Shown here piece after piece: positions 23,320 through 39,078 of a stretch of DNA of 64,000 nucleotides. The stretch comes from Minisyncoccota bacterium. Its GTDB lineage: Bacteria > Patescibacteriota > Minisyncoccia > Phycocordibacterales > UBA2100. The notes under the pieces were generated by a model. That model had not been told where the DNA came from. It was given only the letters and a program-made list of their open reading frames with translations, and did no database searches. How positions within the stretch are numbered: position 1 is the stretch's first letter; each line of letters begins with the position of its first letter. Position numbers and translations under genes: made by a program. The stretch spans positions 27,466-91,465 of the forward strand of contig JAYWCB010000002.1 in the NCBI GenBank assembly GCA_043780835.1, given 5' to 3'.

Positions 23320-23909
23320 ACAAGCTTGAGCGAAGCGACGATATTATTGTGAATAGTTTCCACTTCGGGTTCGCCGTCGATCTCGTGCACGGTCCAGCCC
23401 AGTGTACCCAATTCATTTATCGCAGGAACCACATGTTCCTCGTACCACGAAAACCGTGCTGCAATAAGTTCGTCACGCGCATCGTCGGCGCGACCCCGTG
23501 CAACTAATCGCGCTTTGGCGCTCGCCGGTGTGAGCGTGAGCACAACGACCTGCAGATTCGTGCGATCGAATAGCTGCATCATGTCGTTTACGGCGCGGGA
23601 TTGATCCGGGCGACGGCAGGTTCCGTCAAGAATCAAATTCTCAGTACCGCTGAAAGTCTTGTTCAGCATTTCTGTCAGCATAAATATCGGCATGAACGAC
23701 GGCACCAACCCTCCCGCAGAAACGATCTCCCCAGTTTTTGCTGCGAGCGGCGTGCCGCTCTGCATAAACGTGCGCAAGAGACTACCCATTTCGGGGCGCA
23801 CGACAGCACGCTCCGTATCATGCTCAGTAAGATATTTTTCCAATAAGTCACACTGTGTCCCCTTACCCGATCCCGAGATGCCAAAAAATACGACAGAGAG
23901 GGGTTCCAT
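23316..23909 (-). CDS. adk: Adenylate kinase (short type)
   Basis: VVFFGISGSGKGTQ P-loop, ILDGTCRR (LDGFPR-like), RADD region. Confidence 0.8.
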   Translation of the reverse strand: MEPLSVVFFGISGSGKGTQCDLLEKYLTEHDTERAVVRPEMGSLLRTFMQSGTPLAAKTGEIVSAGGLVPSFMPIFMLTEMLNKTFSGTENLILDGTCRRPDQSRAVNDMMQLFDRTNLQVVVLTLTPASAKARLVARGRADDARDELIAARFSWYEEHVVPAINELGTLGWTVHEIDGEPEVETIHNNIVASLKLV

Positions 23910-24044
23910 ACCCCTACACACGAAACGGCATCGTGCTACCCGCACACTCCGTTACATTAGCGCTCGTAAAAGCCGAATCTTTCAGATGATTTGCATTCAT
24001 ACCAATATTTGAATATTTATGCCGCTTCGTGTGTCGGGGCATAA

Positions 24045-24623
24045 TTATTCAAGAGTATAGCCCTGTTTCTTTAAAATATCGACAACAGATTCAACAGCAT
24101 GATCGAGTTGTCCTTGTGCATTAATGACCGTGAAATCGTACTCTTTTACATCTTCTTCCATTTCTCGTTTTCCGATTGCCAGACGCTCCATAACCTCGGC
24201 GTCATCCATATCGGGATTGCGCGAGCGTATGCGATATTCCAACACTTCCGGAGAATCAGGTATTACGAATATGATGACCGCCCCGTAGAGTTCTTTCAGT
24301 CGTCTCGCGCCAATAATATCCAAATGCGCGAGTACAATTTTGCCCTGACCGAGCTTTGTATCAATATCGGGTTTATAGACACCGTAATGGGTTCCGAGAC
24401 CTTTTACATCGCGATGTTCCAGAATGTCACCGTTTTCGAGCGCCACCATAAACTGCTCGGTTGAAAGAAAATGGTAATCGATTCCGTCTTGTTCCCCGTT
24501 GCGGGGCTGGCGCGTTGTCGCGGTTACCAGACGCGCGCACATAGGATACCGCTCGACGAGCTGATCGAGAATCGAATTCTTTCCCCCGCCCGACGGCCCG
24601 GCGATGACCGCAACGTTCTTCAT
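24045..24623 (-). CDS. gmk: Guanylate kinase
   Basis: IAGPSGGGKNSI, VTATTRQPRNGEQDGIDYHFL, YGV. Confidence 0.8.
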   Translation of the reverse strand: MKNVAVIAGPSGGGKNSILDQLVERYPMCARLVTATTRQPRNGEQDGIDYHFLSTEQFMVALENGDILEHRDVKGLGTHYGVYKPDIDTKLGQGKIVLAHLDIIGARRLKELYGAVIIFVIPDSPEVLEYRIRSRNPDMDDAEVMERLAIGKREMEEDVKEYDFTVINAQGQLDHAVESVVDILKKQGYTLE

Positions 24624-24694
24624 GTCGAGACAGTATCACAAATCAAACAAAAAACCCCACACACGTGGGGTTTTTTGTGGTTTGTGAGCGAGTC

Positions 24695-25969
24695 TTAGTA
24701 CTCGCGAATTGATGTTTGGGCGTCGATCTTTTTAACAAGGTCGAGGACGACCGAGACTGCGATCAAGAGTGCAGTACCACCGATCGAAACTGCCGTAATG
24801 CCCGTGATCGCCTGCAAAGCGATCGGAGCAACCGCAAGCACACCAAGGAAGAGCGCCCCTACCAATGTGATGCGCGTGATGATGTTGCCCAAGTAGTCTG
24901 CTGTCGTGTTGCCTGGACGAACGCCTGGAATGAACGCACCGTTTTTCTGCAAGTTTTTAGCAATCTGGTGCGGCTCGAATGTGATTGCCGTATAGAAGTA
25001 CGTGAACATAACCACAAAGAAGAAGTAGAGCCCTCCGTAAATCCATTGATTCGCGAGACCGGTTACAACTGCGTGTGCTGCATTTGCAATCCACGCGATG
25101 TGCACACGCGCAAGGAAGGTCGCGATCATCTGCGGAAACAAGAGGAACGAAAGCGCAAAGATAATCGGAATCACACCGGCCTGATTTACCCGAAGTGGCA
25201 AGTACGTGGATACCCCGCCCATCACTTTCATCCCCCGCACGCGGCGCGCGTAGGTCACCGGAATGGGGCGTTCCGCTTCAGTGATGTATACAACTCCCGC
25301 CATGATCGCAATGCCGGCAGCCAAGAAGCCGAGGTACGCGGGCGCCTGCGACGCATCAAATGCGAAGAGTGTTTGCGAGATGTTGGCCGGAATGCGCGAC
25401 ACGATACCCGCAAAGATGATGAGCGATACACCGTTTCCGACGCCGAATTCAGAAATGAGTTCACCGATCCACATCAAGAGGATAGATCCTGCGGCGATAA
25501 CGGTGACGTTGGTAACGAGACCGATAAGCGAAAGTGAGGGCACAATGCCGTTTTGCTGCAGCAACAAGAGAAACGCAAACGCCTGGATAAATGCGAGCGG
25601 AATAGCGAGGTAGCGGGAATACTGTGAGAACCGCTGACGACCGGCGTCTCCCTCTTCCTGATACATCTCTTTCAAGCGAGGAATGAGGATTGTCATGAGC
25701 TGCATCACGATTGATGCCGTGATGTACGGACCGACGCCGAGCATGACGATAGAGAGATTCGAAAATCCGCCACCCGAGAAAATATTTAACAGACCAAAGA
25801 ATTGGTTATTCGAAAGGAAGGCCTCGAGCTGTTGTGCGTCGATGCCCGGAACCGGAATAGCCGCCAAGAAGCGGAATACCACAAGTGCACCGAGGACGAA
25901 AAGGATGCGGCTTCGCAACCCCTCGTCTTCGAACACAAGTTTTGTTTTTCGAAGGAAGGATTCAAACAT
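24695..25969 (-). CDS. secY: Preprotein translocase subunit SecY
   Basis: RILFVLGALVVFRFLAAIPVPGID, 10 TM helices, about 420 aa. Confidence 0.9.
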   Translation of the reverse strand: MFESFLRKTKLVFEDEGLRSRILFVLGALVVFRFLAAIPVPGIDAQQLEAFLSNNQFFGLLNIFSGGGFSNLSIVMLGVGPYITASIVMQLMTILIPRLKEMYQEEGDAGRQRFSQYSRYLAIPLAFIQAFAFLLLLQQNGIVPSLSLIGLVTNVTVIAAGSILLMWIGELISEFGVGNGVSLIIFAGIVSRIPANISQTLFAFDASQAPAYLGFLAAGIAIMAGVVYITEAERPIPVTYARRVRGMKVMGGVSTYLPLRVNQAGVIPIIFALSFLLFPQMIATFLARVHIAWIANAAHAVVTGLANQWIYGGLYFFFVVMFTYFYTAITFEPHQIAKNLQKNGAFIPGVRPGNTTADYLGNIITRITLVGALFLGVLAVAPIALQAITGITAVSIGGTALLIAVSVVLDLVKKIDAQTSIREY

Positions 25970-25975
25970 AGAATG

Positions 25976-26416
25976 TTATTTAACCGCAACGGTGCCGCCC
26001 GCTTTCTCGACTACCGCTTTCGCGGAGCCGGTTACACGGACGCCCGTAAATGAATACTTTTTGGAGGTTTCGCCGGCAACGATGGTAACCGGCTGGCTCT
26101 TGCGAGCGAGACCCAAGTCCACAATCATCTGCTTTGTGACGTTTCCTGCCGCAAAGATCGCATCGATCTTCGTGAGTGAGATAGCGCGCGCATCCTGACC
26201 GGGAATGACGGTGCGTCCGCGGTTTTTACCGTATCCGCGACGCTTCGGAAGCTTTTTGATGATATCGCGCATTTCTGGGCGCACCTTGTGACCCGCACGT
26301 GCGGTCTGTCCCTTACCACCGCGACCTGACTGCTTGCCACGGGTAGAACCCTGGCCACGTCCGACGCGTCGGTATGGTCGCTTTCCTGATCGTTTGAGTT
26401 CGTTGAGCGTTGCCAT
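25976..26416 (-). CDS. rplO: 50S ribosomal protein L15
   Basis: LNELKRSGKRPYRRVGRGQGSTRGKQSGRGGKGQ. Confidence 0.9.
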   Translation of the reverse strand: MATLNELKRSGKRPYRRVGRGQGSTRGKQSGRGGKGQTARAGHKVRPEMRDIIKKLPKRRGYGKNRGRTVIPGQDARAISLTKIDAIFAAGNVTKQMIVDLGLARKSQPVTIVAGETSKKYSFTGVRVTGSAKAVVEKAGGTVAVK

Positions 26417-26417
26417 A

Positions 26418-27029
26418 TTATTTTGTTGAGACGGATGCGAGTGCCTGTAGTGCTGCGCGTGCGTTGTTGATCGGATTCTTTGAGCGCGAGAGCAATTTTG
26501 CAGTCACGTCTGATACTCCTGCCATTTCAAGGACGGAGCGCACCGATGAACCTGCAACCAGGCCGCGGCCCGGAGATGGTCGAATTTCTACCACCGATGC
26601 ACAAAACTTTGCTTCGACGTTGTGCTTAATGGATCGGTTTTTGGTGAGATTGAGTGTAATCATGTGGCGCTTTGCATGGCGAGTCGCCTTTTCGATTGCG
26701 AGTTGTGTGTCTGCAGCTTTGCCTACACCCACTCCCACGCGGCCCTTCTTGTCGCCAATAACGATTGCAACAGAGAAATTGAAACGACGACCTCCTGCCA
26801 TCACACGGGCAACGCGGCGAATCCCGATCATCTTCTGGGCAAACTCACTGCGCTCGCGTTCCGGACGATTTCCTCCACGTCGTGGACCACGTTGACCGGG
26901 ACCGCCGCGGCGATCACGATTTTCGCGACCCTGGGAACGAGCCGGCCGTTCTGCAACAGCTGCAGGCGCTGCACCCTCTGCGGGCGCTGCCTGTGTCGCA
27001 TCCATATTCTGTTGTGTTTCGTCAGCCAT
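26418..27029 (-). CDS. rpsE: 30S ribosomal protein S5 (N-terminal extension)
   Basis: RRFNFSVAIVIGDKKGRVGVGVGKAADTQLAIEKA...LEMAGVSDV. Directly abuts rplO; no L30 gene between. Confidence 0.9.
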   Translation of the reverse strand: MADETQQNMDATQAAPAEGAAPAAVAERPARSQGRENRDRRGGPGQRGPRRGGNRPERERSEFAQKMIGIRRVARVMAGGRRFNFSVAIVIGDKKGRVGVGVGKAADTQLAIEKATRHAKRHMITLNLTKNRSIKHNVEAKFCASVVEIRPSPGRGLVAGSSVRSVLEMAGVSDVTAKLLSRSKNPINNARAALQALASVSTK

Positions 27030-27038
27030 AGTAAATGT

Positions 27039-27383
27039 TTAAAATTCTAATCCTGCGCCCCGTGCGGCGTCTGCAAATGCTTTAATAGTTCCGACATACT
27101 GGAAGCCGCCGCGATCAAACACGACCGCCTTGATTCCCTTCTCAACGGCGATCTTTGCAATCGCTACCGCAGCCTGTTCAGCGCGCTCGCGCGGAGTCTT
27201 TCCCTTTTCGTTTGCCGATGATGCTGCGGCGAGCGTAACCCCCTTGTCGTCATCGATAATCTGCGCAGTAAGACGCGTGTTGGACTTGTAAATCGAAAGA
27301 CGCGGACGGGATTCCGTGCCGGAAACACCTGCGCGTACGCGTCGGTGTCGTCGTTCTCGTTGTTCTCGTTTAGTGAGTGCCAT
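27039..27383 (-). CDS. rplR: 50S ribosomal protein L18
   Basis: [34 protein letters not shown]. Confidence 0.9.
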
Positions 27384-27391
27384 ACAAATAT

Positions 27392-27928
27392 TTATCCAGC
27401 TACCTTCTTACCTTGTTTCATGCGCACGACTTCGCCTTCGTATCGAATGCCCTTGCCCTTGTACGGCTCCGGCTTTTTGATTGCGCGAACCGATGCGGCA
27501 AACTGACCGACCGATTCTTTATCTGCGCCCGATACGGAGATAATGTTCTTTTCTACCAATACTGCGACTCCGTGCGGAATTGCAACCAAAACTGGATGCG
27601 AAAAGCCGAGTGCCATTTTGAGATTGGTTCCCTGCATTTCTGCTTTATAGCCGATGCCTTCGATCTGAAGCTTTTTGATGAACGGCGTGTTGACCCCCGA
27701 GATCATGTTGCGCACGTGTGCGGCATAGGTTCCCCACAATGCCTTTGCGAGGCGTGAGTTGTTGGCCGGGTTCACGGTCACATTTTGGCCGTCGATTGTA
27801 ACGGTAACTGCCGGATGGACCATTTTTGTGAGCGTGCCGCCCTTGCCTTTGACGATCAATTCCATCGAAACAACCGAGACTTCGGTGCCCGCAGGGATGA
27901 TTATTTCTTTTTTGCCGACTCGTGACAT
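27392..27928 (-). CDS. rplF: 50S ribosomal protein L6
   Basis: [19 protein letters not shown]...GIGYKAE. Start set at MSRVGKK. Confidence 0.9.
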
Positions 27929-27947
27929 ACAAATATAAATACGATGA

Positions 27948-28343
27948 TTACCAAATCTGGAAAAGCGCTTCGCCGCCGATGTTTTCTTTGCGCGCCTCCT
28001 TATCAGTCTTAATGCCTTTCGGAGTTGAGAGAATGAGTGAGCCGTGTCCGTAACGCACGCGCACGATTTCGCCCGCACGCTTGTATACACGTCGGCCCGG
28101 CTTTGAAATGCGCTTTACGCCCTGGATGATGTGCGTGCCCTCTGAATCGTATTTCAAGGTAACGTCGAGTGTCTTCTTGACCTTCTTACCCTTCTTTTCG
28201 ATTGCTGCGATGTACCCCGCCTCCTTGAGCTTCTCAGCGATTGCAGCCTTGAATGTGGAGTACGGCAAAGATACGACTGCGTGCTTAACAGCGCCGGCGT
28301 TGGTGAGGCGTGTGATGAAATCTGCTACGGGATCTGTGACCAT
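27948..28343 (-). CDS. rpsH: 30S ribosomal protein S8
   Basis: MVTDPVADFITRLTNA...GEALFQIW. Confidence 0.9.
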   Translation of the reverse strand: MVTDPVADFITRLTNAGAVKHAVVSLPYSTFKAAIAEKLKEAGYIAAIEKKGKKVKKTLDVTLKYDSEGTHIIQGVKRISKPGRRVYKRAGEIVRVRYGHGSLILSTPKGIKTDKEARKENIGGEALFQIW

Positions 28344-28344
28344 A

Positions 28345-28530
28345 TTACCAAGATGACTTTTTAACTCCGGGGATATTTCCTTCGAGCGCTTCTTCACGGA
28401 AGCAGATGCGGCAGAGGTTGAAGTCACGCATAAACCCGCGCGGACGTCCGCACTTGAAACAGCGACGTACTGTGCGCGAAGAAAACTTCGGGACGCGGTT
28501 TGCCTTTGCGATCATTGATTTCTTTGCCAT
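28345..28530 (-). CDS. rpsZ: 30S ribosomal protein S14 type Z (zinc-binding)
   Basis: [46 protein letters not shown]. Confidence 0.9.
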
Positions 28531-28779
28531 GTAATTTGTTTATCCCGCACTTTTTTAATTGGGCGGGGGCCGTGAAGGAAAGCGTGGGAGGCCTGCACCC
28601 TGCCTTGCGGCCTGGGTTATGGACACTCCGCGGCGTAGGTCCTAGATTCTTGCGATATACCTGAAAAGTTCAGGAATCAGGCCAAAAAACGGACCTCCTG
28701 CGAGGCCTGCAAAATATACTCGAAAGGTACAGTGAAGTCAAACGGTGACTATTTCATTTATTGACCCGCTGGAGAGATC

Positions 28780-29169
28780 GTGTATCGTTTCAAAAGCGAA
28801 GCATGGAGAACTCCGATGACCGCTGCATTTTCTGACGTAAAAGTAGAACTATCATTCACTATCCCGAAAATGGGAAATGGTCGTCGCGTATTCGTTATTC
28901 CAAACAACGAGGGGCGGCGGCATAAAATTCTCCCAGGATTCGGCACCTATCTTGGTGACGCGAGTCTCGGAAGAATTCTCAATTTGGGTCGACCTGACCT
29001 GATTCGTACGCTCACGCCGAAATTCCGCATGCAGTCTGGCAAAGTTGTGTATGGGATTGAATGCGCATGGACGACGACTCTGCTGTTTCAATCTCCCAGC
29101 AACATCATTGTGCAGTTCGGTGTCGACGACGCTACACTTGAACTCTGCAAAAGACACGGTCTTTTTTAA
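28780..29169 (+). CDS. Hypothetical protein (island 1)
   Basis: GTG/ATG start with GGAGAG upstream. Followed by a strong terminator. Confidence 0.35.
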   Translation: MYRFKSEAWRTPMTAAFSDVKVELSFTIPKMGNGRRVFVIPNNEGRRHKILPGFGTYLGDASLGRILNLGRPDLIRTLTPKFRMQSGKVVYGIECAWTTTLLFQSPSNIIVQFGVDDATLELCKRHGLF

Positions 29170-29183
29170 ATAGCTGGAACGAA

Positions 29184-29210
29184 CGGCCGCGCAATTGCGC
29201 GGCCGTTTTT
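29184..29210 (+). terminator. Rho-independent terminator (cggccgcgc-aatt-gcgcggccg ttttt)
   Basis: Perfect 9-bp GC stem plus T-tract. Confidence 0.55.
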
Positions 29211-29330
29211 ATACTAGTTTCTGCAGCTAGACAGAAAAGTGGGCGTTTCCAGTCACGCTATTCCCCTAACTTGCATATAGTTGGGCTACATGGTTCTGTG
29301 GGTGCAGGATCATTGAAAAGGAGAATATGC

Positions 29331-29918
29331 ATGACGGTGCAGACCAACGATGCGGACTTCGCGGATATTCTCGGGCAGCTTACACAGCGTATTGCAAACG
29401 TAGATGCGTCGAACTTCGTACCACCATCCCGTCAACCGAGCACACGCGACATCATCCTCGGTCCTGCAACAGATCACATCAAGACCTTGAGGACAGCACG
29501 AGCAAAACTCAAGCAGGAGATTGAGTCGATGAGACAGAATATCATTACACTCATCGACAAGATCCAGGCGATGCTTCCGGACACCGTCGCGTCCCTCGCA
29601 GACTACAGCGTGTGGGAAGAACATAATCCTTCAGGAAAAAAGATAGTGGAGGAGCTTTATCGCTTGGACGCTTTAGGTCAGCCGATGCGCGCGATTGAGA
29701 AGATGATGACCGTCCTTCTTAATGCGGAGGTCGCTCGGGCTTATCCTGAGATCTACAAGAAGCGCAACGACGACAAGATCCCTCGCATTAACTCAAACTG
29801 GGATGTGGTGTTTGTTGATCCCCCACACTACACAGGCATCAGCATCGCGGACGGGATAGTTTTTCCGAGTTTACGAACGCTGATGACACAAGAGTCCTCG
29901 GGTATGCACAAGCATTAG
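29331..29918 (+). CDS. Hypothetical protein (island 1)
   Basis: AAAGGAG RBS 7 nt upstream of ATG 29331. Followed by a terminator. Confidence 0.4.
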   Translation: MTVQTNDADFADILGQLTQRIANVDASNFVPPSRQPSTRDIILGPATDHIKTLRTARAKLKQEIESMRQNIITLIDKIQAMLPDTVASLADYSVWEEHNPSGKKIVEELYRLDALGQPMRAIEKMMTVLLNAEVARAYPEIYKKRNDDKIPRINSNWDVVFVDPPHYTGISIADGIVFPSLRTLMTQESSGMHKH

Positions 29919-29947
29919 TCTGTGTTCTAAACGAACGACTGATGCAA

Positions 29948-29975
29948 AAAGGGCCGCTACATGCGGCCCTTTTTC
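29948..29975 (+). terminator. Rho-independent terminator (aaagggccgc-taca-tgcggcccttttt)
   Basis: Perfect stem plus T-tract. Confidence 0.55.
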
Positions 29976-30024
29976 ATATTTTTTTGGGAGTTGGTCGAGA
30001 ATACGTGGCTCTTCGGATCGTGTT

Positions 30025-30567
30025 TTATAAATCGATATACATGTGGTGTGAGTCGACGAGTTCCCCCTGATGACGGGTTCCCTTTGGGAGCATGCCGAAC
30101 TCAACGAATCCGAGCTTTTCGTACAGCGATTTTGCGAGACTGTTCGGAGCCTTCACGGTGAGAATAATCTTTTGCAATCCTTCTAGCTTTTTTGCCTCAT
30201 CAATTGTTGTTTCCATCAGCAATCGGCCAAACCCTTGTCCGCGTGATGCCGCATCAACTCCGAGCCCGAGCTTTGCGATATGACTTTCAGTTTTATCCTG
30301 CATCTCGATATTGCAAAGCCCATGAACCTCGCCATTAACGATAAGAAATAATGCTGCAGCCTTTCCTACCTCGACTTTCTCGATCAGCTTCGTAATAAAC
30401 TTCTGCTCTTCCTCGAGCGTTACCTCTTCTCCCTGCACACGCACAAACGTGCGTTCTTTAGAAAGACGATTGATGTATCTCCACGCACTTTCAACATCTG
30501 CAATTTCCGGATACCGAATGGTATACGGTGTACCATTTTTAGTCGTTCCTTCAGTAACTATTCTCAT
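30025..30567 (-). CDS. GNAT family N-acetyltransferase
   Basis: Acetyl-CoA binding motif RGQGFGRLLM, GNAT beta-alpha core. Start set at MRIVTEG. Confidence 0.7.
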   Translation of the reverse strand: MRIVTEGTTKNGTPYTIRYPEIADVESAWRYINRLSKERTFVRVQGEEVTLEEEQKFITKLIEKVEVGKAAALFLIVNGEVHGLCNIEMQDKTESHIAKLGLGVDAASRGQGFGRLLMETTIDEAKKLEGLQKIILTVKAPNSLAKSLYEKLGFVEFGMLPKGTRHQGELVDSHHMYIDL

Positions 30568-30607
30568 AGGATGAGTGTACGCTCGCACATGCTCGCTGAC
30601 GAGCGAC

Positions 30608-30904
30608 TTATTCTTCAATGTCGGCGTAGATGACAACCCCACATCCGTCATCGAGTGCGGTGTTCAAAGCTATTTCCAACGGATCGGTCGTTTCAAGTTT
30701 TGGCATCGCATCAGGGAGTGTGCCCATTTTCTCTATTGAGAGTATCCAAAAGGCATCAAACATCGCCGTATCGATTTTCTTTATCGCATCTTCCTCATTA
30801 AGGGCTTTTACAAAAATCATCGCACCGTGCTTTTCACCCGTGTTGTACCGCGCATTCCCCTGCGCAGCTGTCGCGATACCGGTGGCTATATGAATGACGT
30901 CCAT
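30608..30904 (-). CDS. Small hypothetical protein between the MTase and GNAT genes
   Basis: 98-aa ORF from MDVIHIATG. The upstream part of the annotated ORF overlaps the MTase and was rejected. Confidence 0.3.
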   Translation of the reverse strand: MDVIHIATGIATAAQGNARYNTGEKHGAMIFVKALNEEDAIKKIDTAMFDAFWILSIEKMGTLPDAMPKLETTDPLEIALNTALDDGCGVVIYADIEE

Positions 30905-30911
30905 AGATTGG

Positions 30912-31694
30912 TTATACCAGCTTCTGTAGGTACATCGAGAAGGTACGGCGTTTCCAGGCACGCTCCTCGCCGATTTTTCCGCGATTGATGTGCTTATGGG
31001 ATTTCTGGATCTTGTGGATCTCGAAGTACGGCTCAAAAAATTCACGGGCCTCGTCCTCGGTCCACACGTGCTCATGCACGCCGATCTTCGGGTGAATATA
31101 TCCTCCGGGTTCATCCGACGGATGATCTTTGAGCAGGCGCGCACTGTGCAGGTCTTCATCCGCAAGGAATGATTTGAAAAACAGCCATCCGCCCGGTTTG
31201 AGCACTCGCACGATTTCTGCGAGGAGTTTCTCACGCTCCTCTTTATGCAAGAAATGCGACGCCATCATATCGAGCACAAACGTGGTTGAGTTGTCGGCAT
31301 CCGGCAAGGGTTCCGTCATGGAGCGCACTGCAAATTCGAGCGGTAAGTCTTCGGCGTTTTTGATGGCTTCTTTGATTGCGACTTCTGATATGTCGTAACC
31401 CACGCCGCGCATGCCAAAATTATTCGACATGTAGATAATGTTGCGCCCGTTGCCGGTGCCGATATCGATCACTTTTACGATCGGATTCAGGTATTTACGA
31501 CCGAAGTCACGCTCCATCCAGCGGATGAACTTTTCAAGATCTTCTGACACATTCATAGAGAGCGCGAGGTGTTCGCTCGTTTGGTATTCCTTATTCCAGA
31601 ATTCCTTATGCTTGCCGGTCCCCTGCTTGAGAAGGGTCGTTTGCCCCGGTTTTATCTTTTTTACTTTTCGTACCATAGTCTGTATTTTCCCCAC
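30912..31694 (-). CDS. Class I SAM-dependent methyltransferase
   Basis: Motif I VIDIGTGNGRN, motif post-I GYDIS, VLKPGGWLFF. Confidence 0.7.
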   Translation of the reverse strand: MGKIQTMVRKVKKIKPGQTTLLKQGTGKHKEFWNKEYQTSEHLALSMNVSEDLEKFIRWMERDFGRKYLNPIVKVIDIGTGNGRNIIYMSNNFGMRGVGYDISEVAIKEAIKNAEDLPLEFAVRSMTEPLPDADNSTTFVLDMMASHFLHKEEREKLLAEIVRVLKPGGWLFFKSFLADEDLHSARLLKDHPSDEPGGYIHPKIGVHEHVWTEDEAREFFEPYFEIHKIQKSHKHINRGKIGEERAWKRRTFSMYLQKLV

Positions 31695-31730
31695 AATACC
31701 TTACCCCACTCTTCTATGCACCCTTCCGTA

Positions 31731-31764
31731 TCCCTATCTGTACGCGATAGCGTATATTTAGGGA
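31731..31764. promoter_or_regulatory. Operator-like repeat copy A (tccctatctgTACGCGATAGCGTAtatttaggga), palindromic core TACGC-GATA-GCGTA
   Basis: Immediately upstream of the PaaX-like gene start (31766). A near-identical copy sits at 32384-32413. Confidence 0.4.
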
Positions 31765-31765
31765 T

Positions 31766-32347
31766 ATGAGAAATATCGAGGAGAAAGGGAGAAAGCGAAG
31801 AAGAAAAGAAAATATTCAGAACGCCCTCCTTTCGATTGTCACCGTCGCTGGAACTCTAGCCGTTGCAACAGTGGCACCGAATATATTCCAAGCACTTCCT
31901 CATATCGTCGGCAAGGATCGCTATAGACTCGCATTCAAAAGTAAGACGGCGATCGATCGGTTGATCATAAAGAAGTATCTTCGTCGCGTTCGTAAAAACG
32001 GATCAGTGTTTTTGGAGTTAACCAACGAGGGCCGCCAACATCTACTTGTGGAAGAAGCGCGAGTAAGCTCTCCCGCGTCAAAAAAGAGAAAGCGATGGGA
32101 CGGTCGATATCGGCTTGTTATGTTCGATATACCAGAAAAGCGAAAAACTACGCGCGATCGCCTACGAATGCTCATGAACGAATTTGGCTTTATGCGATTA
32201 CAAAACAGCGTGTGGGTTTCTCCGTACGATTGTGAGGAACTGATTGCACTCGTAAAGGCGGAGCTCCGAATCGGGTCGGCAATTCTGTACGCTCTTGTCG
32301 ACCAGATCGAGGGCGAACGAAGAATTAAGGATCATTTTGGACTGTAA
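31766..32347 (+). CDS. PaaX-like transcriptional regulator-like protein (wHTH-like N-terminus plus Cas2/VapD-like ferredoxin-fold C-terminal domain)
   Basis: C-terminal YRLVMFDIPEKRKTTRDRLRMLMNEFGFMRLQNSVWVS strongly resembles the Cas2 N-terminal beta1-alpha1-beta2 region (...YDV..KRR.R..K....YG.RVQNSVFEC). N-terminal region is basic/HTH-like. Confidence 0.45.
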   Translation: MRNIEEKGRKRRRKENIQNALLSIVTVAGTLAVATVAPNIFQALPHIVGKDRYRLAFKSKTAIDRLIIKKYLRRVRKNGSVFLELTNEGRQHLLVEEARVSSPASKKRKRWDGRYRLVMFDIPEKRKTTRDRLRMLMNEFGFMRLQNSVWVSPYDCEELIALVKAELRIGSAILYALVDQIEGERRIKDHFGL

Positions 32348-32383
32348 TATACCGCCACAAACAAATATATGTCGTTTAATAAA

Positions 32384-32413
32384 TCCCTATTTCTACGCGA
32401 TAGCGTAATTATA
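32384..32413. promoter_or_regulatory. Operator-like repeat copy B (tccctatttcTACGCGATAGCGTAattatagaga)
   Basis: Second copy of the palindromic motif, upstream of small gene 32501-32788. Confidence 0.4.
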
Positions 32414-32500
32414 GAGACATGACTGTAGTGAGGTAGTGAGATAGCGGATAAATCATACGTCTGGTACCGTACCACAGGATCATCACCGAAGGAGACTCTT

Positions 32501-32788
32501 ATGTTGGCTATTCGCATTATTGCGATGCCTCCTGGCTTCGCGCCCGAAGAAATACGTAGATCTTGGATTGGCGTTACCATTCCGCTCGCGACAGACGAAG
32601 AGATTGCAGTAGATCCGCCATCGGGCTTCGGATTCGGCAACCTGAACATGGACGGACATCTTGTCCTTCTAGACAAGGCTCTGGCTGCTTTGGATGCTGC
32701 TCAACAGAATGAGGCTTTCATATTCTGGGAACAATTCCTAATGGGCAGATATCTTCGTTTCAGCAAGGACGTGTGCGAACTGGTTTAA
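32501..32788 (+). CDS. Small hypothetical protein (island 1)
   Basis: GGAGA RBS 6 nt upstream. Terminator follows. Confidence 0.4.
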   Translation: MLAIRIIAMPPGFAPEEIRRSWIGVTIPLATDEEIAVDPPSGFGFGNLNMDGHLVLLDKALAALDAAQQNEAFIFWEQFLMGRYLRFSKDVCELV

Positions 32789-32804
32789 GTTCGTTCCAAT
32801 ATCA

Positions 32805-32832
32805 AAATGGCCGCTTTGCAGCGGCCATTTTT
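32805..32832. terminator. Bidirectional terminator (aaatggccgc-tttgca-gcggccattttt) between the island and rplE
   Basis: Perfect 10-bp stem with flanking A/T tracts. Confidence 0.55.
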
Positions 32833-32837
32833 GTTTG

Positions 32838-33368
32838 TTATTTCTGGAGCGGGACACCGAGATGTCGTAAAAATGCTTCTGCCTCTTTTTTGTTTTTTGC
32901 AGTCGTTGTAACCGTGACTGCGAGACCGAACACATCTTTTGCGTCTTCGTCGGATGTCTCCGGGAAGACGGTGTGTTCCTTGAAGCCGATGGTGATATTT
33001 CCCATCTCATCGATTGCAGAGACCTTGATACCACGGAAGTCTTTCACACGCGGGAGTACGATATTGACGAGTTTGTCGAAGAACGAAACCATTCGAGCAC
33101 CGCGCATCGTGATCTGGTAGCCAGAGAGATCACCAACACGAGTCTTGAAGTTCGCAATTGATTTCGTGGTGAGGCGCTTGGCGGGAGCCTGACCGGTAAT
33201 TTTGGTCAGACGATCAACGATGACCTCGAGCTTCTTTTTGTCTTTGACGGAGCCTACGCCGCACGAAACGATGAGCTTACTCAGCGTCGGGGTCTGCATG
33301 ACATTTTTGTATCCGAACTCAGCCTTGAGGGCTGCGTGGGTATTCTTCTGAATAGTGTGTGCGTCCAT
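32838..33368 (-). CDS. rplE: 50S ribosomal protein L5
   Basis: PTLSKLIVSCGVGS...FRGI...GNITIGFKEH. Confidence 0.9.
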   Translation of the reverse strand: MDAHTIQKNTHAALKAEFGYKNVMQTPTLSKLIVSCGVGSVKDKKKLEVIVDRLTKITGQAPAKRLTTKSIANFKTRVGDLSGYQITMRGARMVSFFDKLVNIVLPRVKDFRGIKVSAIDEMGNITIGFKEHTVFPETSDEDAKDVFGLAVTVTTTAKNKKEAEAFLRHLGVPLQK

Positions 33369-33369
33369 A

Positions 33370-33681
33370 TTATTTGATGGCCTGACCGCTCTTTACAGCG
33401 ATGCGGCTACGAACTCCTTTTTCGTCTCGCTTGATTGAAATACGTGATGGCTTTCCGGTTTTCACGTCTACGATCATTACATTCGATACATGGATCGGCA
33501 TCGGTTTATTGATGATCTGGCCGCTTCGGGAAGCCTGTGTTCGCTTCTTGTGACGCTTGCCCATGTTCACGCCGTCGATGATGATCTTATCGATCTTCGT
33601 GAATACCTGTGTGATTGCGCCGGTTGCGCCTTTTGCCTTGCCCGCAATCACCATTACTTTGTCTCCTTTTTTGAGTTTCAT
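33370..33681 (-). CDS. rplX: 50S ribosomal protein L24
   Basis: MKLKKGDKVMVIAGKAKGATGAI (KOW motif). Start set at MKLKKGD. Confidence 0.85.
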   Translation of the reverse strand: MKLKKGDKVMVIAGKAKGATGAITQVFTKIDKIIIDGVNMGKRHKKRTQASRSGQIINKPMPIHVSNVMIVDVKTGKPSRISIKRDEKGVRSRIAVKSGQAIK

Positions 33682-33685
33682 ATAA

Positions 33686-34057
33686 TTACAAAATTTCCGG
33701 TGCAAGTGATGCGATCTTCTGATAGCCGCGTTCAATGACTTCGCGCGGAATCGGTCCGAATACACGGTTTGCCTTTGGCTCCTTCTTATCCTTTTCCACG
33801 AGCACCACAGCGTTTTCGTCGAAGCGGATGTATGAACCGTCCTTGCGGCGGAATGCCTTTTTCTGGCGTACGACAACTGCGCGGTGCACATCCTTCTTCT
33901 TTACAGACTTACGAGGCTGCGCAGTTTGGATGGAGAGGACGACCTCGTCGCCGATTTCGGCATAGCGCTTTTTGGATCCGCCAAGAATTTTGAACACACG
34001 CCCGATCTGTCCGCCGGAGTTGTCTGCAATTTTTACGAGTGATCGATCCTGCAACAT
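33686..34057 (-). CDS. rplN: 50S ribosomal protein L14
   Basis: MLQDRSLVKIADNSGG... Confidence 0.9.
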   Translation of the reverse strand: MLQDRSLVKIADNSGGQIGRVFKILGGSKKRYAEIGDEVVLSIQTAQPRKSVKKKDVHRAVVVRQKKAFRRKDGSYIRFDENAVVLVEKDKKEPKANRVFGPIPREVIERGYQKIASLAPEIL

Positions 34058-34063
34058 ATATAT

Positions 34064-34333
34064 TTATTTTGTTTCGACTGCGGCACTATCGGATGAAACG
34101 ATGATGAAGCGCTTGAGCTTTGAAATTGGTCGTGTCTCCTTGATGGTCACTTTTGCACCAACGACTGCGGTATTACCCGGATTGTGGACGAGAAACTTCT
34201 TTGAAAGACGCATGTACTTCTTGTATTTCGGATGCTTCACGTAGCGTTCCACCTGAACGGTCACCGTGTCTTTCATCGCCGCTTTTACAACGACGCCGTC
34301 AAATGTCTTTCCTGTTGTGATTTTAGCTTCCAT
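34064..34333 (-). CDS. rpsQ: 30S ribosomal protein S17
   Basis: GVVVKAAMKDTVTVQVERYVKHPKYKKY. Confidence 0.9.
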   Translation of the reverse strand: MEAKITTGKTFDGVVVKAAMKDTVTVQVERYVKHPKYKKYMRLSKKFLVHNPGNTAVVGAKVTIKETRPISKLKRFIIVSSDSAAVETK

Positions 34334-34339
34334 ACAATC

Positions 34340-34531
34340 TTACTTTTGGCCTACCTTACGCGAATTCATCTCTGTAAGCAACCGAGCGATCTCTTTGCGG
34401 AGTCCGCGACCCTCGCGCACGTTGCGTGTGCGGGTTCCAGCCTCACCGAATCGGAACGTGCGAAGTGCCTCGCGCTTTGTTGCGATCTCCTTCTGCAGGT
34501 CTTCCATGTTCCATGATTTAAGTTCAGCCAT
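34340..34531 (-). CDS. rpmC: 50S ribosomal protein L29
   Basis: MAELKSWNMEDLQKEIATKREALRTFRF. Confidence 0.85.
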   Translation of the reverse strand: MAELKSWNMEDLQKEIATKREALRTFRFGEAGTRTRNVREGRGLRKEIARLLTEMNSRKVGQK

Positions 34532-34542
34532 ACAATTTATGA

Positions 34543-34965
34543 TTACGCTCGTGCGACAATGCGGACTTTTACGGGAAGTTTTGTGCCTGCCTTGCGAAGT
34601 GCTTCGCGTGCCATAGCCTCGGTTGCTCCGTCGACTTCGAACAGGATGCGTCCCGGACGAACATCAAACACGTAGCCTGCCAAATCACCTTTACCGGATC
34701 CCATGCGTACTTCTGCAGGCTTTTTGGTGAACGGTCGGTCCGGGAAAATGCGCACCCAGATCTTTGCGCTCTTCCCTGCTGCGCGCGAGAGCGCACGACG
34801 AGCTGCTTCGATCTGATTCGCAGTCACTCGGTGCTGGCTCATGGCCTTGAGGCCGAATGATCCGAAGGCTACGGTGATGCCGCGGGTGTCGGGAGCAACA
34901 CGACGATCGCCTCGTCGGCGGCCGTTCTGCCACTTTCGGTGTTTAACTTTTTTTGGTGCCAACAT
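34543..34965 (-). CDS. rplP: 50S ribosomal protein L16
   Basis: MLAPKKVKHRKWQNGRRRG... Confidence 0.9.
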   Translation of the reverse strand: MLAPKKVKHRKWQNGRRRGDRRVAPDTRGITVAFGSFGLKAMSQHRVTANQIEAARRALSRAAGKSAKIWVRIFPDRPFTKKPAEVRMGSGKGDLAGYVFDVRPGRILFEVDGATEAMAREALRKAGTKLPVKVRIVARA

Positions 34966-34971
34966 ACAAAT

Positions 34972-35646
34972 TTATTGATCCTTCTTGTCGAAGATGTCGC
35001 CGCGATAGATCCATACCTTCACACCGATAACGCCGTATGGGAGATATGCCTTTTCTTTCGCAAAATCGATGTCTGCGCGAAGCGTCTGCAACGGCACACG
35101 ACCGCGTTTGATCTCTTCGGAGCGAGACATTTCTGCCCCTCCCAATCGGCCGGAGATGCCGATGCGCACACCCTGTACGTCACGGTTTGCCATCACCTTC
35201 TCTACCGTCTGCTTGAGCACGCGGCGGAACGTTTGGCGCTTCTCGAGACCTTCTGCAACCATGTAGGCAACAACCGGAGCCTGCGACTCAGGAGAACGCA
35301 CTTCTTCGATGTCGAGCTTGACCAACGATCGTCCTTTTGGAGCACCTTTTACCGTGCCGACAACCTTCTCGATTTCTTTGACGAGTTTCTGGCTACCTTC
35401 GCCGCCGCGGCCGATGACGAGTCCCGGTCGTGAGGTTTTCACGAGGATGCGGATAACGGTCTGTGCGCGTTCGATTTCAACTGACGTCACGAACATACCG
35501 CGAAGGCGCTTCGTAAGGAATCGGCGGATAGTCGTGTCGATCATCACGTTGGTGCGGTACTCGAGCGGTGACTTCGCAAACCAGCGCGACTTCCAATCGC
35601 GGATGATGCCGAGGCGATGTGCGTATGGATGTACTGTATGTGTCAT
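34972..35646 (-). CDS. rpsC: 30S ribosomal protein S3
   Basis: HPYAHRLGIIRDWKSRWFA, KH domain GLVIGRGGEG. Confidence 0.9.
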   Translation of the reverse strand: MTHTVHPYAHRLGIIRDWKSRWFAKSPLEYRTNVMIDTTIRRFLTKRLRGMFVTSVEIERAQTVIRILVKTSRPGLVIGRGGEGSQKLVKEIEKVVGTVKGAPKGRSLVKLDIEEVRSPESQAPVVAYMVAEGLEKRQTFRRVLKQTVEKVMANRDVQGVRIGISGRLGGAEMSRSEEIKRGRVPLQTLRADIDFAKEKAYLPYGVIGVKVWIYRGDIFDKKDQ

Positions 35647-35649
35647 AAA

Positions 35650-36111
35650 TTATTCGGATTTTGATTCGCTCTTTGGTGCTTTCTTTGCGGTCTTTTTTGC
35701 GACAACTTTCTTCGCAGCCTTCGGCTTAGCCTCTTCTGCTACGTCTGCCGTCTTTTTCGACTTTGCGGGTACCGCAGGTGTCGCGCTGTTAGAACCGAGC
35801 TCGAGCGTTACGATGGAAAAAGTCTTTGCATAGCGCGCCGCGCGACCACGTGCCTTCGGCATAAAGCGGCGCATGACCTGACCTTTGTTCACCGCTATAG
35901 CCTTTACAAAAAGACTCTCCACATCGGCGCCGTTATTTTGCACCGCATTCGAGACAGCGGAATTAAGGAGCTTCAACATAACCGGAGAAGACTTTTTTGG
36001 GAGAAACGACAATGCCTGACGCGCTGCCGGAATCGACTTGCCGCGAATTAAATCCGCAACGAGGCGTACTTTGCGTGGTGATTGTTTGTAGTTTGTGAGC
36101 AGCGCCTTCAT
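35650..36111 (-). CDS. rplV: 50S ribosomal protein L22 (Lys/Ala-rich C-terminal tail)
   Basis: SPRKVRLVADLIRGKSIPAARQALSFLPKKSSPVMLKLLNSAVSNAVQN. Confidence 0.9.
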   Translation of the reverse strand: MKALLTNYKQSPRKVRLVADLIRGKSIPAARQALSFLPKKSSPVMLKLLNSAVSNAVQNNGADVESLFVKAIAVNKGQVMRRFMPKARGRAARYAKTFSIVTLELGSNSATPAVPAKSKKTADVAEEAKPKAAKKVVAKKTAKKAPKSESKSE

Positions 36112-36120
36112 AAAAATCTA

Positions 36121-36459
36121 TTATTTCTTCGCTGCGGTAGTTGCTGCTTTTGCGGCTTGTGCGGTCTGGATCTCCTGCTGCTTAGCAGCCATTTCAGCCT
36201 CCTTTTGCATCTTACCGCCGTGTCGAACGAAGCGCGTAGTTGGTGCAAATTCGCCGAGCTTGTGGCCTACCATGTCTTCAGAAACGAACACCGCATCGAA
36301 GTTCTTTCCCGTGTGGACTGCGAATGTGTAGCCGACGAATTCAGGAGCGATCGAGCTTGCGCGCGCCCACGTCTTAATAGAGCCGTCATTCGGCTTGCGA
36401 TTAGACACCTTTTTGAGGAGTTTCTCGTCTACGTAAGGTCCTTTTTTTGCGCTTCGCAT
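36121..36459 (-). CDS. rpsS: 30S ribosomal protein S19 (C-terminal extension)
   Basis: [17 protein letters not shown]...[23 protein letters not shown]. Confidence 0.9.
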
Positions 36460-36633
36460 AGTATTATTTGTTCGGTCAATTGAAAACCCGCGTTTGGCGG
36501 GAGTTCGTGCAATTTATACGAAGTACCCTCTAATGTCAACTATTTTCAAGCTAAATTAGAGGTCGTGTTGCAGAGTTGCGGATATGTGGCATAGTAATCG
36601 CCGGAAAACGTCCGCAAACAATGGAGTTAAGCC

Positions 36634-36957
36634 ATGAAATACGTGCTCGCGCTGGATATTCGTGTCATGAATCCCGATGACCCAAAACTGGAATGTGCGC
36701 TCAGATGTTGGAATGGACCGCTTATCCCGGCGGGAGCCGGCGTATTCATTGATTGCGGTTTATCTGAGGGCTACATGACAACCGTAGTCGGCCACAATAC
36801 GATGCTCAAGCCGAGCCAAATCCACGAGGAACATATAGAGATCAATCTCGAGTTCACAGCAGAGGCGCTCGGAGAAATCCCCTCTCGCGATCGTACGTGG
36901 GCCGAAGCACAAGTCGCCTACCTCCTTGGTGAGGGCGGATGGAAGCTGCTTAGTTAA
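36634..36957 (+). CDS. Hypothetical protein (island 2)
   Basis: 107-aa ORF with GGAG RBS, opposite strand to the flanking r-protein genes. Confidence 0.35.
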   Translation: MKYVLALDIRVMNPDDPKLECALRCWNGPLIPAGAGVFIDCGLSEGYMTTVVGHNTMLKPSQIHEEHIEINLEFTAEALGEIPSRDRTWAEAQVAYLLGEGGWKLLS

Positions 36958-37096
36958 CAGGACTAAAGCAATTCTATTTAAAAAAACCCGGATGCTGTGA
37001 AAAGGACCGTGTGAAAAGGACCGTCCTTTTCAGAGCTCTGCATGCGAACCATGGAAAAGGCTCATTGAATAAGCCTCATCGTTCATTGCGATATTC

Positions 37097-37130
37097 AAAA
37101 GGCCCGGATCACTCCGGGCCTTTTTGTTTT
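37097..37130. terminator. Bidirectional terminator (aaaaggcccgga-tcact-ccgggcctttttgtttt)
   Basis: Perfect 8-bp GC stem with T-tract, between 36634-36957(+) and the hydrolase(-). Confidence 0.55.
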
Positions 37131-37134
37131 CAAA

Positions 37135-37803
37135 TCAGTCCGTCTGAAGAAAATGACGGACGGCGTGAAGAAATTCCCCTTTCTTATCCCGAAACACAAA
37201 GTGTCCTCTGTGCGGTATGACCACACACTGTGCATTTGGAATACGCGTAGCCATGTGTTTCCCGTAGTGTGCCGGCGCGAGCGCGTCTGCGCTCGCATAC
37301 ACAAACAGAACGCTACTGCGTATCTTCGAAAAAAGACTACTGTCTCCTCGAGTGTGAGCGGCAAGATAACGCTTACGATGGAATATGTGCGCCAACGCGA
37401 TGCATGCGAAGCGAAACAGAGAGTGCTCGCCGATAGGGCCCATCGATATGAGCACGATTTTCTTGATGGGAAATCGTGACGCATACGTCAGTGCAATTCG
37501 TGCGCCAAAGGAGTGTCCGATGATTGCACACGGCGCCACCTGGAGCGTTACCGCAAATTTGTTTACAAAATCCGCGTACGTTTCCACCGTCCACGCTGCT
37601 TGTGGAGTATCGCTCTCTCCGAACCCGGGAAGATCGAGTATATAGAGGGTGAAATGCTCTCCAAGCACTGATGCAGAGCTGCTCCAGGTTTTTCCGGCCT
37701 GAGCCCAACCATGCAAAAGAATAACTGCGGGACCGGAACCAATCTGCTCGTACGCGCATACTACGCCGTCTACTTCGACCGTACCGCGAGTCATACATCG
37801 CAT
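37135..37803 (-). CDS. Alpha/beta-fold hydrolase
   Basis: VILLHGWAQAGKTW, nucleophile elbow IIGHSFGARIAL, C-terminal His region. Confidence 0.7.
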   Translation of the reverse strand: MRCMTRGTVEVDGVVCAYEQIGSGPAVILLHGWAQAGKTWSSSASVLGEHFTLYILDLPGFGESDTPQAAWTVETYADFVNKFAVTLQVAPCAIIGHSFGARIALTYASRFPIKKIVLISMGPIGEHSLFRFACIALAHIFHRKRYLAAHTRGDSSLFSKIRSSVLFVYASADALAPAHYGKHMATRIPNAQCVVIPHRGHFVFRDKKGEFLHAVRHFLQTD

Positions 37804-37867
37804 CGTATCTTGTCATCTCACAAACAAAAACACTGCCATGCGGCAGTGTTTTTGTTTTGAATCTGTT

Positions 37868-38710: not shown

Positions 38711-38715
38711 ATAGT

Positions 38716-39078
38716 TTAGAACGTGATCGTATCGCTCGACTTGAGATAGACGTATGCTTTTTTGCCACCGCCCTTCATACCGGACTTTCCGGTGCGTGCA
38801 TGCCGAACTGACTTCATTGGAACCGTAACCATGCGAACGCTTCGCGGAGTTACCTTGTAAAGCTGGTAGACCGCACGGATCACGTCGCGCTTCGTGGCGC
38901 GGGTTGCAACATCGAAGGTATACACCTTTGCGTCTGCATGCATCGTCGCCTTTTCGGTGATGCGGGCATGCATCAACACGTGCGAGAGATCGCGTTGACC
39001 TGCTGAAACAGATTCAGTTGCTTTAACGGGTGCATCCGCTTTCTTAGCTGCTTTTTTCTTAGTTGAGAAGAGTGCCAT
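38716..39078 (-). CDS. rplW: 50S ribosomal protein L23 (N-terminal extension)
   Basis: VLMHARITEKATMHADAKVYTFDVATRATKRDVIRAVYQLYKV. Confidence 0.85.
   Translation of the reverse strand: MALFSTKKKAAKKADAPVKATESVSAGQRDLSHVLMHARITEKATMHADAKVYTFDVATRATKRDVIRAVYQLYKVTPRSVRMVTVPMKSVRHARTGKSGMKGGGKKAYVYLKSSDTITF

Follow-up and report, generated by a model that had tools for sequence, protein, structure and literature searches.

The S10-spc cluster of ribosomal-protein genes is a textbook example of conserved gene order, and in metagenome-assembled genomes it serves as a marker of contiguity and of phylogeny. Why should rplE (L5) and rpsZ (zinc-ribbon S14) stand 4307 bp apart in a bacterium of the Minisyncoccota (contig JAYWCB010000002.1 of assembly GCA_043780835.1)? 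The stretch analysed, hereafter the window, comprises 64,000 nucleotides and carries the cluster on its minus strand in the order rplC-rplD-rplW-rplB, a 1.4-kb gap, rpsS-rplV-rpsC-rplP-rpmC-rpsQ-rplN-rplX-rplE, a 4.3-kb gap, and rpsZ-rpsH-rplF-rplR-rpsE-rplO-secY-gmk-adk-map. The larger gap (window positions 28531-32837) holds seven open reading frames (ORFs), distributed over the two strands, together with three terminator hairpins; the ORF calls and Pfam matches bear out an initial annotation of the window, which had described a spc-type order interrupted by seven genes on both strands. We consider it likely that the S10-spc cluster has been re-segmented throughout this lineage, and that the insulated boundaries so created are permissive hot spots for gene gain and loss.

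The closest relatives by L5 are metagenome-assembled genomes, mostly labelled Candidatus Kaiserbacteria, Paceibacterota or Parcubacteria. When 22 consecutive gene junctions of the ribosomal cluster were surveyed over 49 related Kaiserbacteria/Paceibacteria loci, only two proved to be expanded. The rplE/rpsZ junction (41 loci) had a median length of 1014 bp, exceeding 300 bp in 28 loci and 1 kb in 21, with a maximum of 8 kb and three more loci above 10 kb; the rplB/rpsS junction (37 loci) had a median of 582 bp, exceeding 300 bp in 22 loci and 1 kb in 11, with a maximum of 6.2 kb. The remaining junctions showed medians of 40 bp or less and no more than three outliers each, except for rplC/rplD, whose median of 187 bp is an artefact of a mis-set rplC query start. 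In loci outside the candidate phyla radiation (CPR) that were retrieved with the same query (Flavobacteriia, Nitrospira, Nitrosospira), rplE adjoins rpsZ. The rplE/rpsZ junction is thus a lineage-wide hot spot and not a one-off: the initial annotation had called an insertion of this kind rare, and expansion of the junction in 28 of 41 related loci makes it a recurrent event.

Both boundaries share the same design, a conserved sigma-70-type promoter followed at once by a hairpin and a U tract, to which a leader of about 175 nt is added at rpsZ. Upstream, rplE (32838-33368, minus strand; Pfam Ribosomal_L5; 95% identical to its counterpart in the related locus L001) is the last ribosomal gene of the unit rpsS...rplE and is followed by a bidirectional intrinsic-terminator hairpin (32804-32831; 12-bp stem, A run before and T run after) placed between it and a convergent 95-aa ORF; L001 carries a corresponding hairpin there. 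All three terminators described in the initial annotation were located, at 32804-32831, 29946-29974 and 29184-29210, and a predicted hairpin followed by a U tract also occurs at 28684-28707. Downstream, rpsZ (28345-28530, minus strand; 61 aa; 85-98% identity across Kaiserbacteria loci) opens the next unit, and the new promoter that had been postulated for 28531-28780 has its best candidate at 28713-28741 on the minus strand (TTGACT-17-TATATT, score 10/12, the top site of the region). The predicted layout is therefore one in which the bidirectional terminator would end the rplE unit and rpsZ-secY, cut off from the upstream genes as the initial annotation had proposed, would be transcribed from a promoter of its own.

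The rpsZ promoter is conserved across relatives. A regular-expression search found TTGAC(T/A)-17-TATAnT upstream of rpsZ in the window and in 24 of 24 related loci searched, and the positions of TTGAC and TATAnT are invariant in a 22-sequence alignment (A1). Six nucleotides past the -10 box comes a conserved element, the hairpin GCCUCGUAGGGGGC with a U tract behind it, the window version being GGCCUCGCAGGAGGUCC+U6 at 28707-28684. L001, with a DNA identity to the window of only 77-81% and therefore another species, loses similarity to it across most of the gap and regains it at 28718, inside the -10 box. Elsewhere the gap is reduced to little else: in some genomes the rplE-rpsZ spacer of ~180-290 bp is essentially the promoter-hairpin-leader module alone, and in L015 the -35 box begins 2 nt past the rplE stop codon. 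A metagenome scan for the promoter-plus-hairpin motif returned 96 stretches; rpsZ lay downstream in 55 of the 56 contigs in which this could be tested, and in the 47 contigs where rplE was present its distance to the promoter ranged from 9 to 3540 bp. As the promoter and leader are kept even in genomes with a gap of only ~180 bp, the split would predate the cargo. In L004, moreover, the hairpin and U tract past the rpsZ -10 box are the only terminator-like element after rplE and the methyltransferase gene that follows it, from which we infer that the promoter-proximal hairpins stop read-through from upstream.

The second boundary, before rpsS, carries its own module at 36477-36539 on the minus strand (TTGACA-17-TAAATT, the hairpin CCCGC-N5-GCGGG, then UUUUCAAUUG). 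Across relatives it takes the form TTGACA-17-TAnAnT, CCCGC-N4-5-GCGGG with compensatory variants, then UUUUCAAUUG, and a strict script found it in 23 of 47 loci. The corresponding pocket of the window (36460-37867) holds an alpha/beta hydrolase gene (37135-37803, minus strand) and a 107-aa ORF (36634-36957, plus strand), neither of which has a homologue in the other related loci.

The span between the rpsZ promoter and start codon, 130-180 nt across loci and ~175 nt in the window (28708-28531, minus strand), is predicted to fold into a structured leader, with the 5' hairpin and U tract (28684-28707) succeeded by helices P2, P3 and P4. Twenty-one leader sequences were aligned with MAFFT, which is blind to structure (alignment A2), and helices were called by vote over the individual minimum-free-energy folds. 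Four helices resulted: P1 joins a 5' AGGGG with a CUCCU-like element near the 3' end of the leader, P2 joins the U tract with AAGAA...GG and encloses a variable hairpin, P3 lies with them, and P4 is capped by a GNRA-type loop and flanked by invariant UAA and UGC. In this fold 85% of alignment cells are paired, against 38-60% when the partners are slid; changes on both sides occur in 22 of 32 pairs, none of 500 shuffles matched the observed values, and the pair counts hold on an alignment with held-out sequences (A4). The covariation is carried by P2, P3 and P4. With a covariance model (R1), each of 26 loci, including five outside the training set, gave a single significant copy. It lies immediately before rpsZ except in L009, where ~430 nt separate the two; the sole extra match (16 bits, E = 0.15) lies inside L045.

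Comparison with known leaders gave no counterpart. Rfam returned no match at gathering threshold over the whole window and, at E ≤ 5 over 28300-33000, only sub-threshold matches on terminator hairpins and no family for the leader, nor is the leader among the published ribosomal-leader sets compared. Like the ribosomal-protein leaders (r-leaders) of Eckert and Weinberg (2020; PMC7247131) and of Rfam, it covaries, precedes a ribosomal-protein operon and is restricted to a lineage; it differs from those of Rfam in having no match in Rfam 15 even at E ≤ 5. In PMC7247131, S14 is mentioned once, in the discussion of L31, and no leader from Patescibacteria appears. With a consistent position in the 5' untranslated region and a structure supported by covariation, two of the marks of an r-leader, this predicted element is a candidate new ribosomal-protein regulatory RNA, for which feedback by a protein encoded in the downstream unit would be the most likely role.

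How these parts might work together can be outlined as follows. The S10-spc cluster would be cut into separate transcription units at rplB/rpsS and rplE/rpsZ, and DNA inserted past the end of one unit but ahead of the promoter of the next would leave ribosomal-protein expression undisturbed; being harmless in this respect, such insertions would let the boundaries behave as permissive pockets. The promoter-proximal hairpin and U tract would probably halt transcription arriving from upstream, whereas RNA initiated at the promoter would carry this same hairpin at its 5' terminus, and the U tract would pair with the downstream AAGAA element to form P2. The leader would then most likely allow an encoded ribosomal protein to exert feedback control.

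Several points weigh against this proposal. The promoters, transcription start sites and terminators invoked are read from sequence alone, and a hairpin and U tract lying wholly within the promoter-initiated transcript could terminate that transcript too. P1 and an alternative local 5' hairpin show one-sided changes only (G-C/G-U), which leaves the outermost fold ambiguous, and a comparison by hand with the S8 rRNA site, the only site considered, using the features given in PMC4176348, revealed no simple match in the leader. As for the lineage, the two closest relatives by L5, L001 (95%) and L002 (82%), are labelled 'Saccharibacteria', unlike most of the others. How genes enter the pockets is left unexplained by the proposal and, finally, the strong conservation of the methyltransferase gene directly past rplE suggests selection for its position rather than mere tolerance.

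This last point leads to a further explanation, that the core genes reside in the gap because of their function. The window encodes a class I S-adenosylmethionine-dependent methyltransferase (MT; 254 aa, 30912-31676, minus strand, with an alternative GTG start at 31694) and a GNAT acetyltransferase (180 aa from M29; 30025-30567, minus strand, the longest ORF reaching 30651; Pfam Acetyltransf_1/3). The former, and possibly the latter, would have tRNA, rRNA or ribosomal proteins as substrate and stay in the cluster for the sake of co-expression, and the pocket would in that case extend the operon functionally. With MT identities of 81-87% in L001, L002, L086 and L087, where L5 identities are 82-95%, MT is as conserved as some ribosomal proteins; identities are 53-66% in L004, L005, L012, L013, L024, L045 and L085. 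In 12 genome or assembly loci MT is always within the rplE-rpsZ gap and always co-directional with the operon, as it is in 15 further metagenome loci, and it usually follows rplE directly on the same strand, 44-150 bp downstream (44 bp in L093, a population represented in at least 24 contigs). Its G+C content at third codon positions (0.63) resembles that of ribosomal genes, its termini are rich in Lys and Arg, and its best PHROG match is 'tRNA methyltransferase'; this match and the position of the gene provide a modest lead towards an RNA substrate. GNAT follows MT also in L001, L002, L086 and L087 (67% identity to L001, 52% to L086), and its best NCBIfam match is RimI.

Every one of these family matches is nonetheless far under the curated cutoffs. 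The RimI match of GNAT (TIGR01575) reached 46.5 bits against a cutoff of 86.4, and assignment as a RimI/RimJ/RimL-type ribosomal-protein acetyltransferase was rejected accordingly; its nearest PDB entries are 2ge3 and SpeG, with RimI structures weaker (E ~1e-5). MT belongs to a family of more than 1000 clusters, and sequence and profile searches against PDB placed small-molecule methyltransferases on top (phosphoethanolamine methyltransferase, YtkW, TehB), the tRNA m3C methyltransferase METTL6 not being among the best 60 of 71 matches. Moreover, MT is missing from this site in many Kaiserbacteria whose gaps are short, and in the window a terminator and two opposite-strand genes uncouple MT from rplE. 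Residency for function is compatible with the boundary model, from which it differs in the reason for which the genes stay, and we regard it as possible if somewhat doubtful. A role in arsenic or metalloid detoxification (MT as an ArsM/TehB-like, GNAT as an ArsN-like and the LMWPc phosphatase of L087 as an ArsC-like protein) was considered and discarded: scores were far under cutoffs, and ArsM catalysis relies on conserved cysteines, whereas MT has no cysteine at all.

For the leader, the feedback role may be set against a rival in which the rpsZ 5' region is no protein-binding autoregulatory element and acts either through its structure, as an insulator that also stabilises the mRNA, or as a metabolite-sensing riboswitch. 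The analogous rpsS module consists only of a hairpin, a U-rich tract and CAAUUG, and the comparison by hand with the S8 site found no rRNA mimicry; indeed, an attempt to map the leader onto that site gave no convincing register, and S8 mimicry was set aside. A Shine-Dalgarno sequence is present in five of the seven genes of the gap (the 98-aa ORF and GNAT lack it) and missing from both rpsZ and rpsS, where U/A-rich stretches could load ribosomes instead. On the other hand, 130-180 nt, four helices and an invariant internal-loop UAA/UGC exceed what a stabiliser needs, and where a structured leader regularly precedes ribosomal-protein operons, the usual assumption is that it binds a protein encoded there (PMC7247131). 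On balance, we find this rival unlikely and retain feedback control as the preferred role.

The best-known relative in function would be the feedback control of the Escherichia coli spc operon by S8, whose RNA element is confined to Gammaproteobacteria (PMC3616713, PMC4176348). In both cases a structured element precedes genes that include rpsH, and here it would allow control of S14-S8-L6-L18-S5-L15. The E. coli operator, however, overlaps the rplE start, whereas the present leader lies upstream of rpsZ, with rplE in a different unit, and is ~175 nt long with four helices. Its invariant 5'-UAA and 5'-UGC, furthermore, are not simply the S8 core, i.e., the (G597-C643)-U641 triple, A642 and the A595-(A596-U644) triple (PMC4176348).

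A single, recently and horizontally acquired island or mobile element in an otherwise intact spc operon was the reading given most prominence by the initial annotation, and the content of the gap bears on it directly. The gap genes of relatives are varied, including MT (7 loci), PemK/MazF and YafQ/RelE toxins, a Cas1, SecDF, a fatty-acid hydroxylase and DUF2177, besides peptidoglycan-binding proteins, glycosyltransferases, PIF1/Dda helicases and ParB-like proteins. The Cas1 (E = 7e-67) lies in the rplE-rpsZ gap of one relative, either L007, L046 or L029. In favour of an island, the genes stand on both strands between strong terminators, the GC content of the gap falls slightly below that of the window (0.482 against 0.506), and the ORFs of 95 aa (32501-32788, plus strand; AAGGAG Shine-Dalgarno), 98 aa (30608-30904, minus strand, between MT and GNAT) and 117 aa (28816-29169, plus strand, divergent from rpsZ), the latter two confirmed by gene calls on Logan contigs, are species-specific. 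None of the three has a homologue in any fetched locus or a family match in NCBIfam or PHROG (nor in Pfam for the 95- and 117-aa ORFs), and they are plausibly recent or very fast-evolving.

The other genes do not share this pattern, and presence or absence as one block was not observed: MT, GNAT and the family of a 195-aa protein are conserved in place, and these genes, together with a PaaX_M-like gene, are found in this gap in other species too. No integrase, recombinase or transposase was found among the seven ORFs (Pfam, NCBIfam, PHROGs), and the 25 families listed as most frequent in 104 ORFs from the gaps of relatives include no integrase or transposase. Positions 28531-32837 are not flanked by any pair of repeats, the 64-kb window contains no tRNA or tmRNA, the tetranucleotide profile is within 1.5 standard deviations of the window mean, and blastn against phage and plasmid collections gave no match. 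The promoter and leader retained at ~180-bp gaps likewise place the split before the cargo. The junction does resemble integration hot spots and genomic islands in its fixed position between invariant genes and in its variable cargo, toxin-antitoxin toxins and a Cas1 included; it differs in having no integrase, att repeats or tRNA, and in a cargo of mostly ordinary cellular genes that are partly vertically conserved. A single island, already largely refuted by synteny, is thus highly improbable. Of the initial interpretation, the rare and recent acquisition of an accessory island falls with the conserved content found at this position in related genomes, and the alternative it had offered, a lineage-specific regulatory rearrangement of operon structure, is consistent with the data.

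The content of the gap is layered rather than the product of one recent event. The old core comprises MT and the 195-aa protein divergent from rpsZ; GNAT, common to several relatives, forms a second layer; the PaaX_M/Cas2-like gene with its duplicated operator-like elements, shared like GNAT within the genus, would be a later arrival that uncoupled MT from rplE; and the 95-, 98- and 117-aa ORFs, found in this species only, make up the fourth. MT appears to be the oldest resident and was probably once co-transcribed with rplE. At present, MT, the 98-aa ORF and GNAT seem to constitute a small operon divergent from the PaaX_M-like gene, in which the slot between MT and GNAT is variable, being occupied by an LMWPc phosphatase gene in L087, by nothing in L001 and by the 98-aa ORF in the window. 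A bidirectional terminator (29946-29974; 12-bp stem with 7 GC pairs, A-run and T-run flanks) is predicted between GNAT and the convergent 195-aa ORF, and another terminator after the 117-aa ORF (29184-29210, plus strand), a perfect 20-nt palindrome read directly as GGCCGCGC-AATT-GCGCGGCC+TTTTT.

The 195-aa ORF (29331-29918, plus strand) belongs to a small, fast-evolving family with 12 representatives among 1.8 billion proteins; a word-indexed search matched the query alone, and a full HMMER search gave 11 distant relatives. In five of five contexts inspected (L002, L085, L086, L087, L088) the gene is beside rpsZ, divergent from it and next to MT or GNAT, and in L085 its promoter and that of rpsZ are back-to-back, 70 nt apart. 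In an AlphaFold (AF2) model with a pLDDT of 83, two long helices are accompanied by a small sheet, and PDB offers no significant match (none better than E = 0.7); the coiled-coil look-alikes SMC, UvsY and DksA were rejected as weak, non-significant fold matches. The protein represents a fast-evolving coiled-coil family, long resident at this site.

The PaaX_M/Cas2-like protein (193 aa; 31766-32347, plus strand; Pfam) matches PF20803 with 66 bits against a cutoff of 24 and has a hydrophobic N-terminal segment. It shares with PaaX the central Cas2-like domain and a palindromic operator-like element overlapping its own promoter, but is ~100 aa shorter and far under the PaaX equivalog cutoff (TIGR02277, 39.3 bits against 264.55), so that only the PaaX_M domain passes and identity as the PaaX repressor was rejected. 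Its Cas2-domain matches are marginal (PF09827, 27.6 against 23.8; TIGR01573, 35.6 against 24.5) and a CRISPR Cas2 was likewise dismissed, as the window has no CRISPR array and no paa genes, and neither window nor island has a cas1. The family, of at least 183 clusters, is Kaiserbacteria-wide, most clusters coming from that group, and is routinely mislabelled 'Cas2'. In the window, in L001 and in three metagenome contigs the gene is placed between rplE and MT, and in L090-L092 it is found elsewhere in the genome; its product is likely a DNA-binding regulator, encoded divergently from MT.

Its start codon ends an operator/promoter-like element, ATCCCTA-N8-CGCGATAGCG-TATATT-TAGGGAT-ATG (31730-31769, plus strand), of which a second copy of ~40 nt, a direct repeat with 83% identity, stands at 32383-32422 on the same strand. 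The general form is ATCCCTA-N8-(C)GCTATAGC-like-TAwAwT-TAGGGAT-ATG. Two copies bracket the gene also in L001 (10903-10935 and 11544-11576) and L090 (~4960-5000 and 5600-5640), and the outer inverted repeat co-varies, reading ATCCCCA/TGGGGAT in L090. The small ORF behind the second copy differs from species to species; the pair may be an autoregulatory operator that also drives the variable downstream gene, or the remnant of a duplication.

The assembly itself was checked against Logan contigs of run SRR23617225, which match the window with 100% identity over 16674-27475, 27446-29191 and 29224-42911; the second covers rpsZ, the leader and the 117-aa ORF, and the third extends from the 195-aa ORF through rplE to rplC, so that a different assembler reproduced both outer junctions, on the rplE and the rpsZ side. 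These contigs stop at 29191 and resume at 29224, leaving 32 nt (29192-29223) unbridged at the perfect palindrome of the internal terminator, a break that could reflect the effect of the palindrome on a k-mer graph or local strain variation; the join is supported by synteny, as rplE and rpsZ flank homologous genes on single contigs of L001, L085, L086 and L087. Chimeric joins of unrelated contigs, an eventuality raised with the initial annotation and favoured only by the unbridged 32 nt, deserve hardly any credence given the contiguous, fully identical outer junctions, a hairpin that is a plausible break point, and the order rplE-...-MT-GNAT-(195-aa family)-rpsZ on those single contigs from other species and assemblies.

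Insertions into ribosomal clusters have precedents. In Gammaproteobacteria and Bacilli, genes are typically inserted between the operons of the cluster, breaking their concatenation, and the new order is often not maintained (Brandis, 2021; PMC8046335). The likeness lies in the few unrelated genes placed between transcription units; those insertions, however, are at rpoBC/str, at str/S10 or inside the rpoBC operon (rplL/rsmC), whereas rplB/rpsS and rplE/rpsZ fall inside the E. coli S10 and spc operons, recur across a CPR lineage, and bear conserved promoter-hairpin modules together with a new structured leader. A literature search on split ribosomal operons in CPR/Parcubacteria and on CPR r-leaders returned nothing relevant. 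The present case is a lineage-specific operon rearrangement, which includes a candidate regulatory RNA and two conserved proteins. We tentatively offer a more inclusive reading, in which the Kaiserbacteria S10-spc cluster would form three units, promoter-hairpin/U-tract insulators would make 'safe-harbour' hot spots, the rpsZ leader would be an undescribed class of ribosomal-protein-responsive RNA, and the MT ending the S19-L5 unit would be a lineage-specific tRNA or rRNA modifier.

A ribosomal cluster that is repeatedly interrupted at the same two non-canonical positions within a large CPR lineage affects the use of ribosomal-protein blocks in binning and marker concatenation, and changes the regulation of ribosome synthesis to be expected in these bacteria. 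The candidate regulatory RNA is available in at least 26 covariance-model examples from genome loci and in the 96 metagenome stretches with the promoter-hairpin motif, and MT and the 195-aa family, which keep a fixed place next to ribosomal genes, are for that reason testable candidates for a part in translation. The locus may also be a natural example of how very small genomes gain genes without disturbing essential operons.

Beyond the two boundaries, the cluster (22549-41100) is without the usual str/S10 start and alpha-operon continuation, as judged from the non-ribosomal neighbours of rplC and map and from tblastn, in which E. coli queries found no homologue of rpsJ (S10), rpmD (L30), rpmJ (L36) or infA in the window. 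A 168-aa hypothetical protein precedes rplC, and non-ribosomal genes follow map. The secY/gmk junction is a minor variable one, above 300 bp in 3 of 19 loci: L086 has two gmk copies in tandem where the window has one (24045-24623, guanylate-kinase family, between secY and adk), and L087 has an extra 385-aa ORF at the secY-adk position. Two collinear paralogous blocks (41096-44211 and 52035-56031) hold four to five genes each, whose products are predicted to be membrane or secreted proteins and show 27-49% pairwise identity; a divergent ORF of ~480-500 aa follows either block. Among the ribosomal proteins, S5 (26418-27029) has a low-complexity N-terminal extension of ~50 aa, and L22 (35650-36111) and S19 (36121-36459) carry Lys/Ala-rich C-terminal tails.

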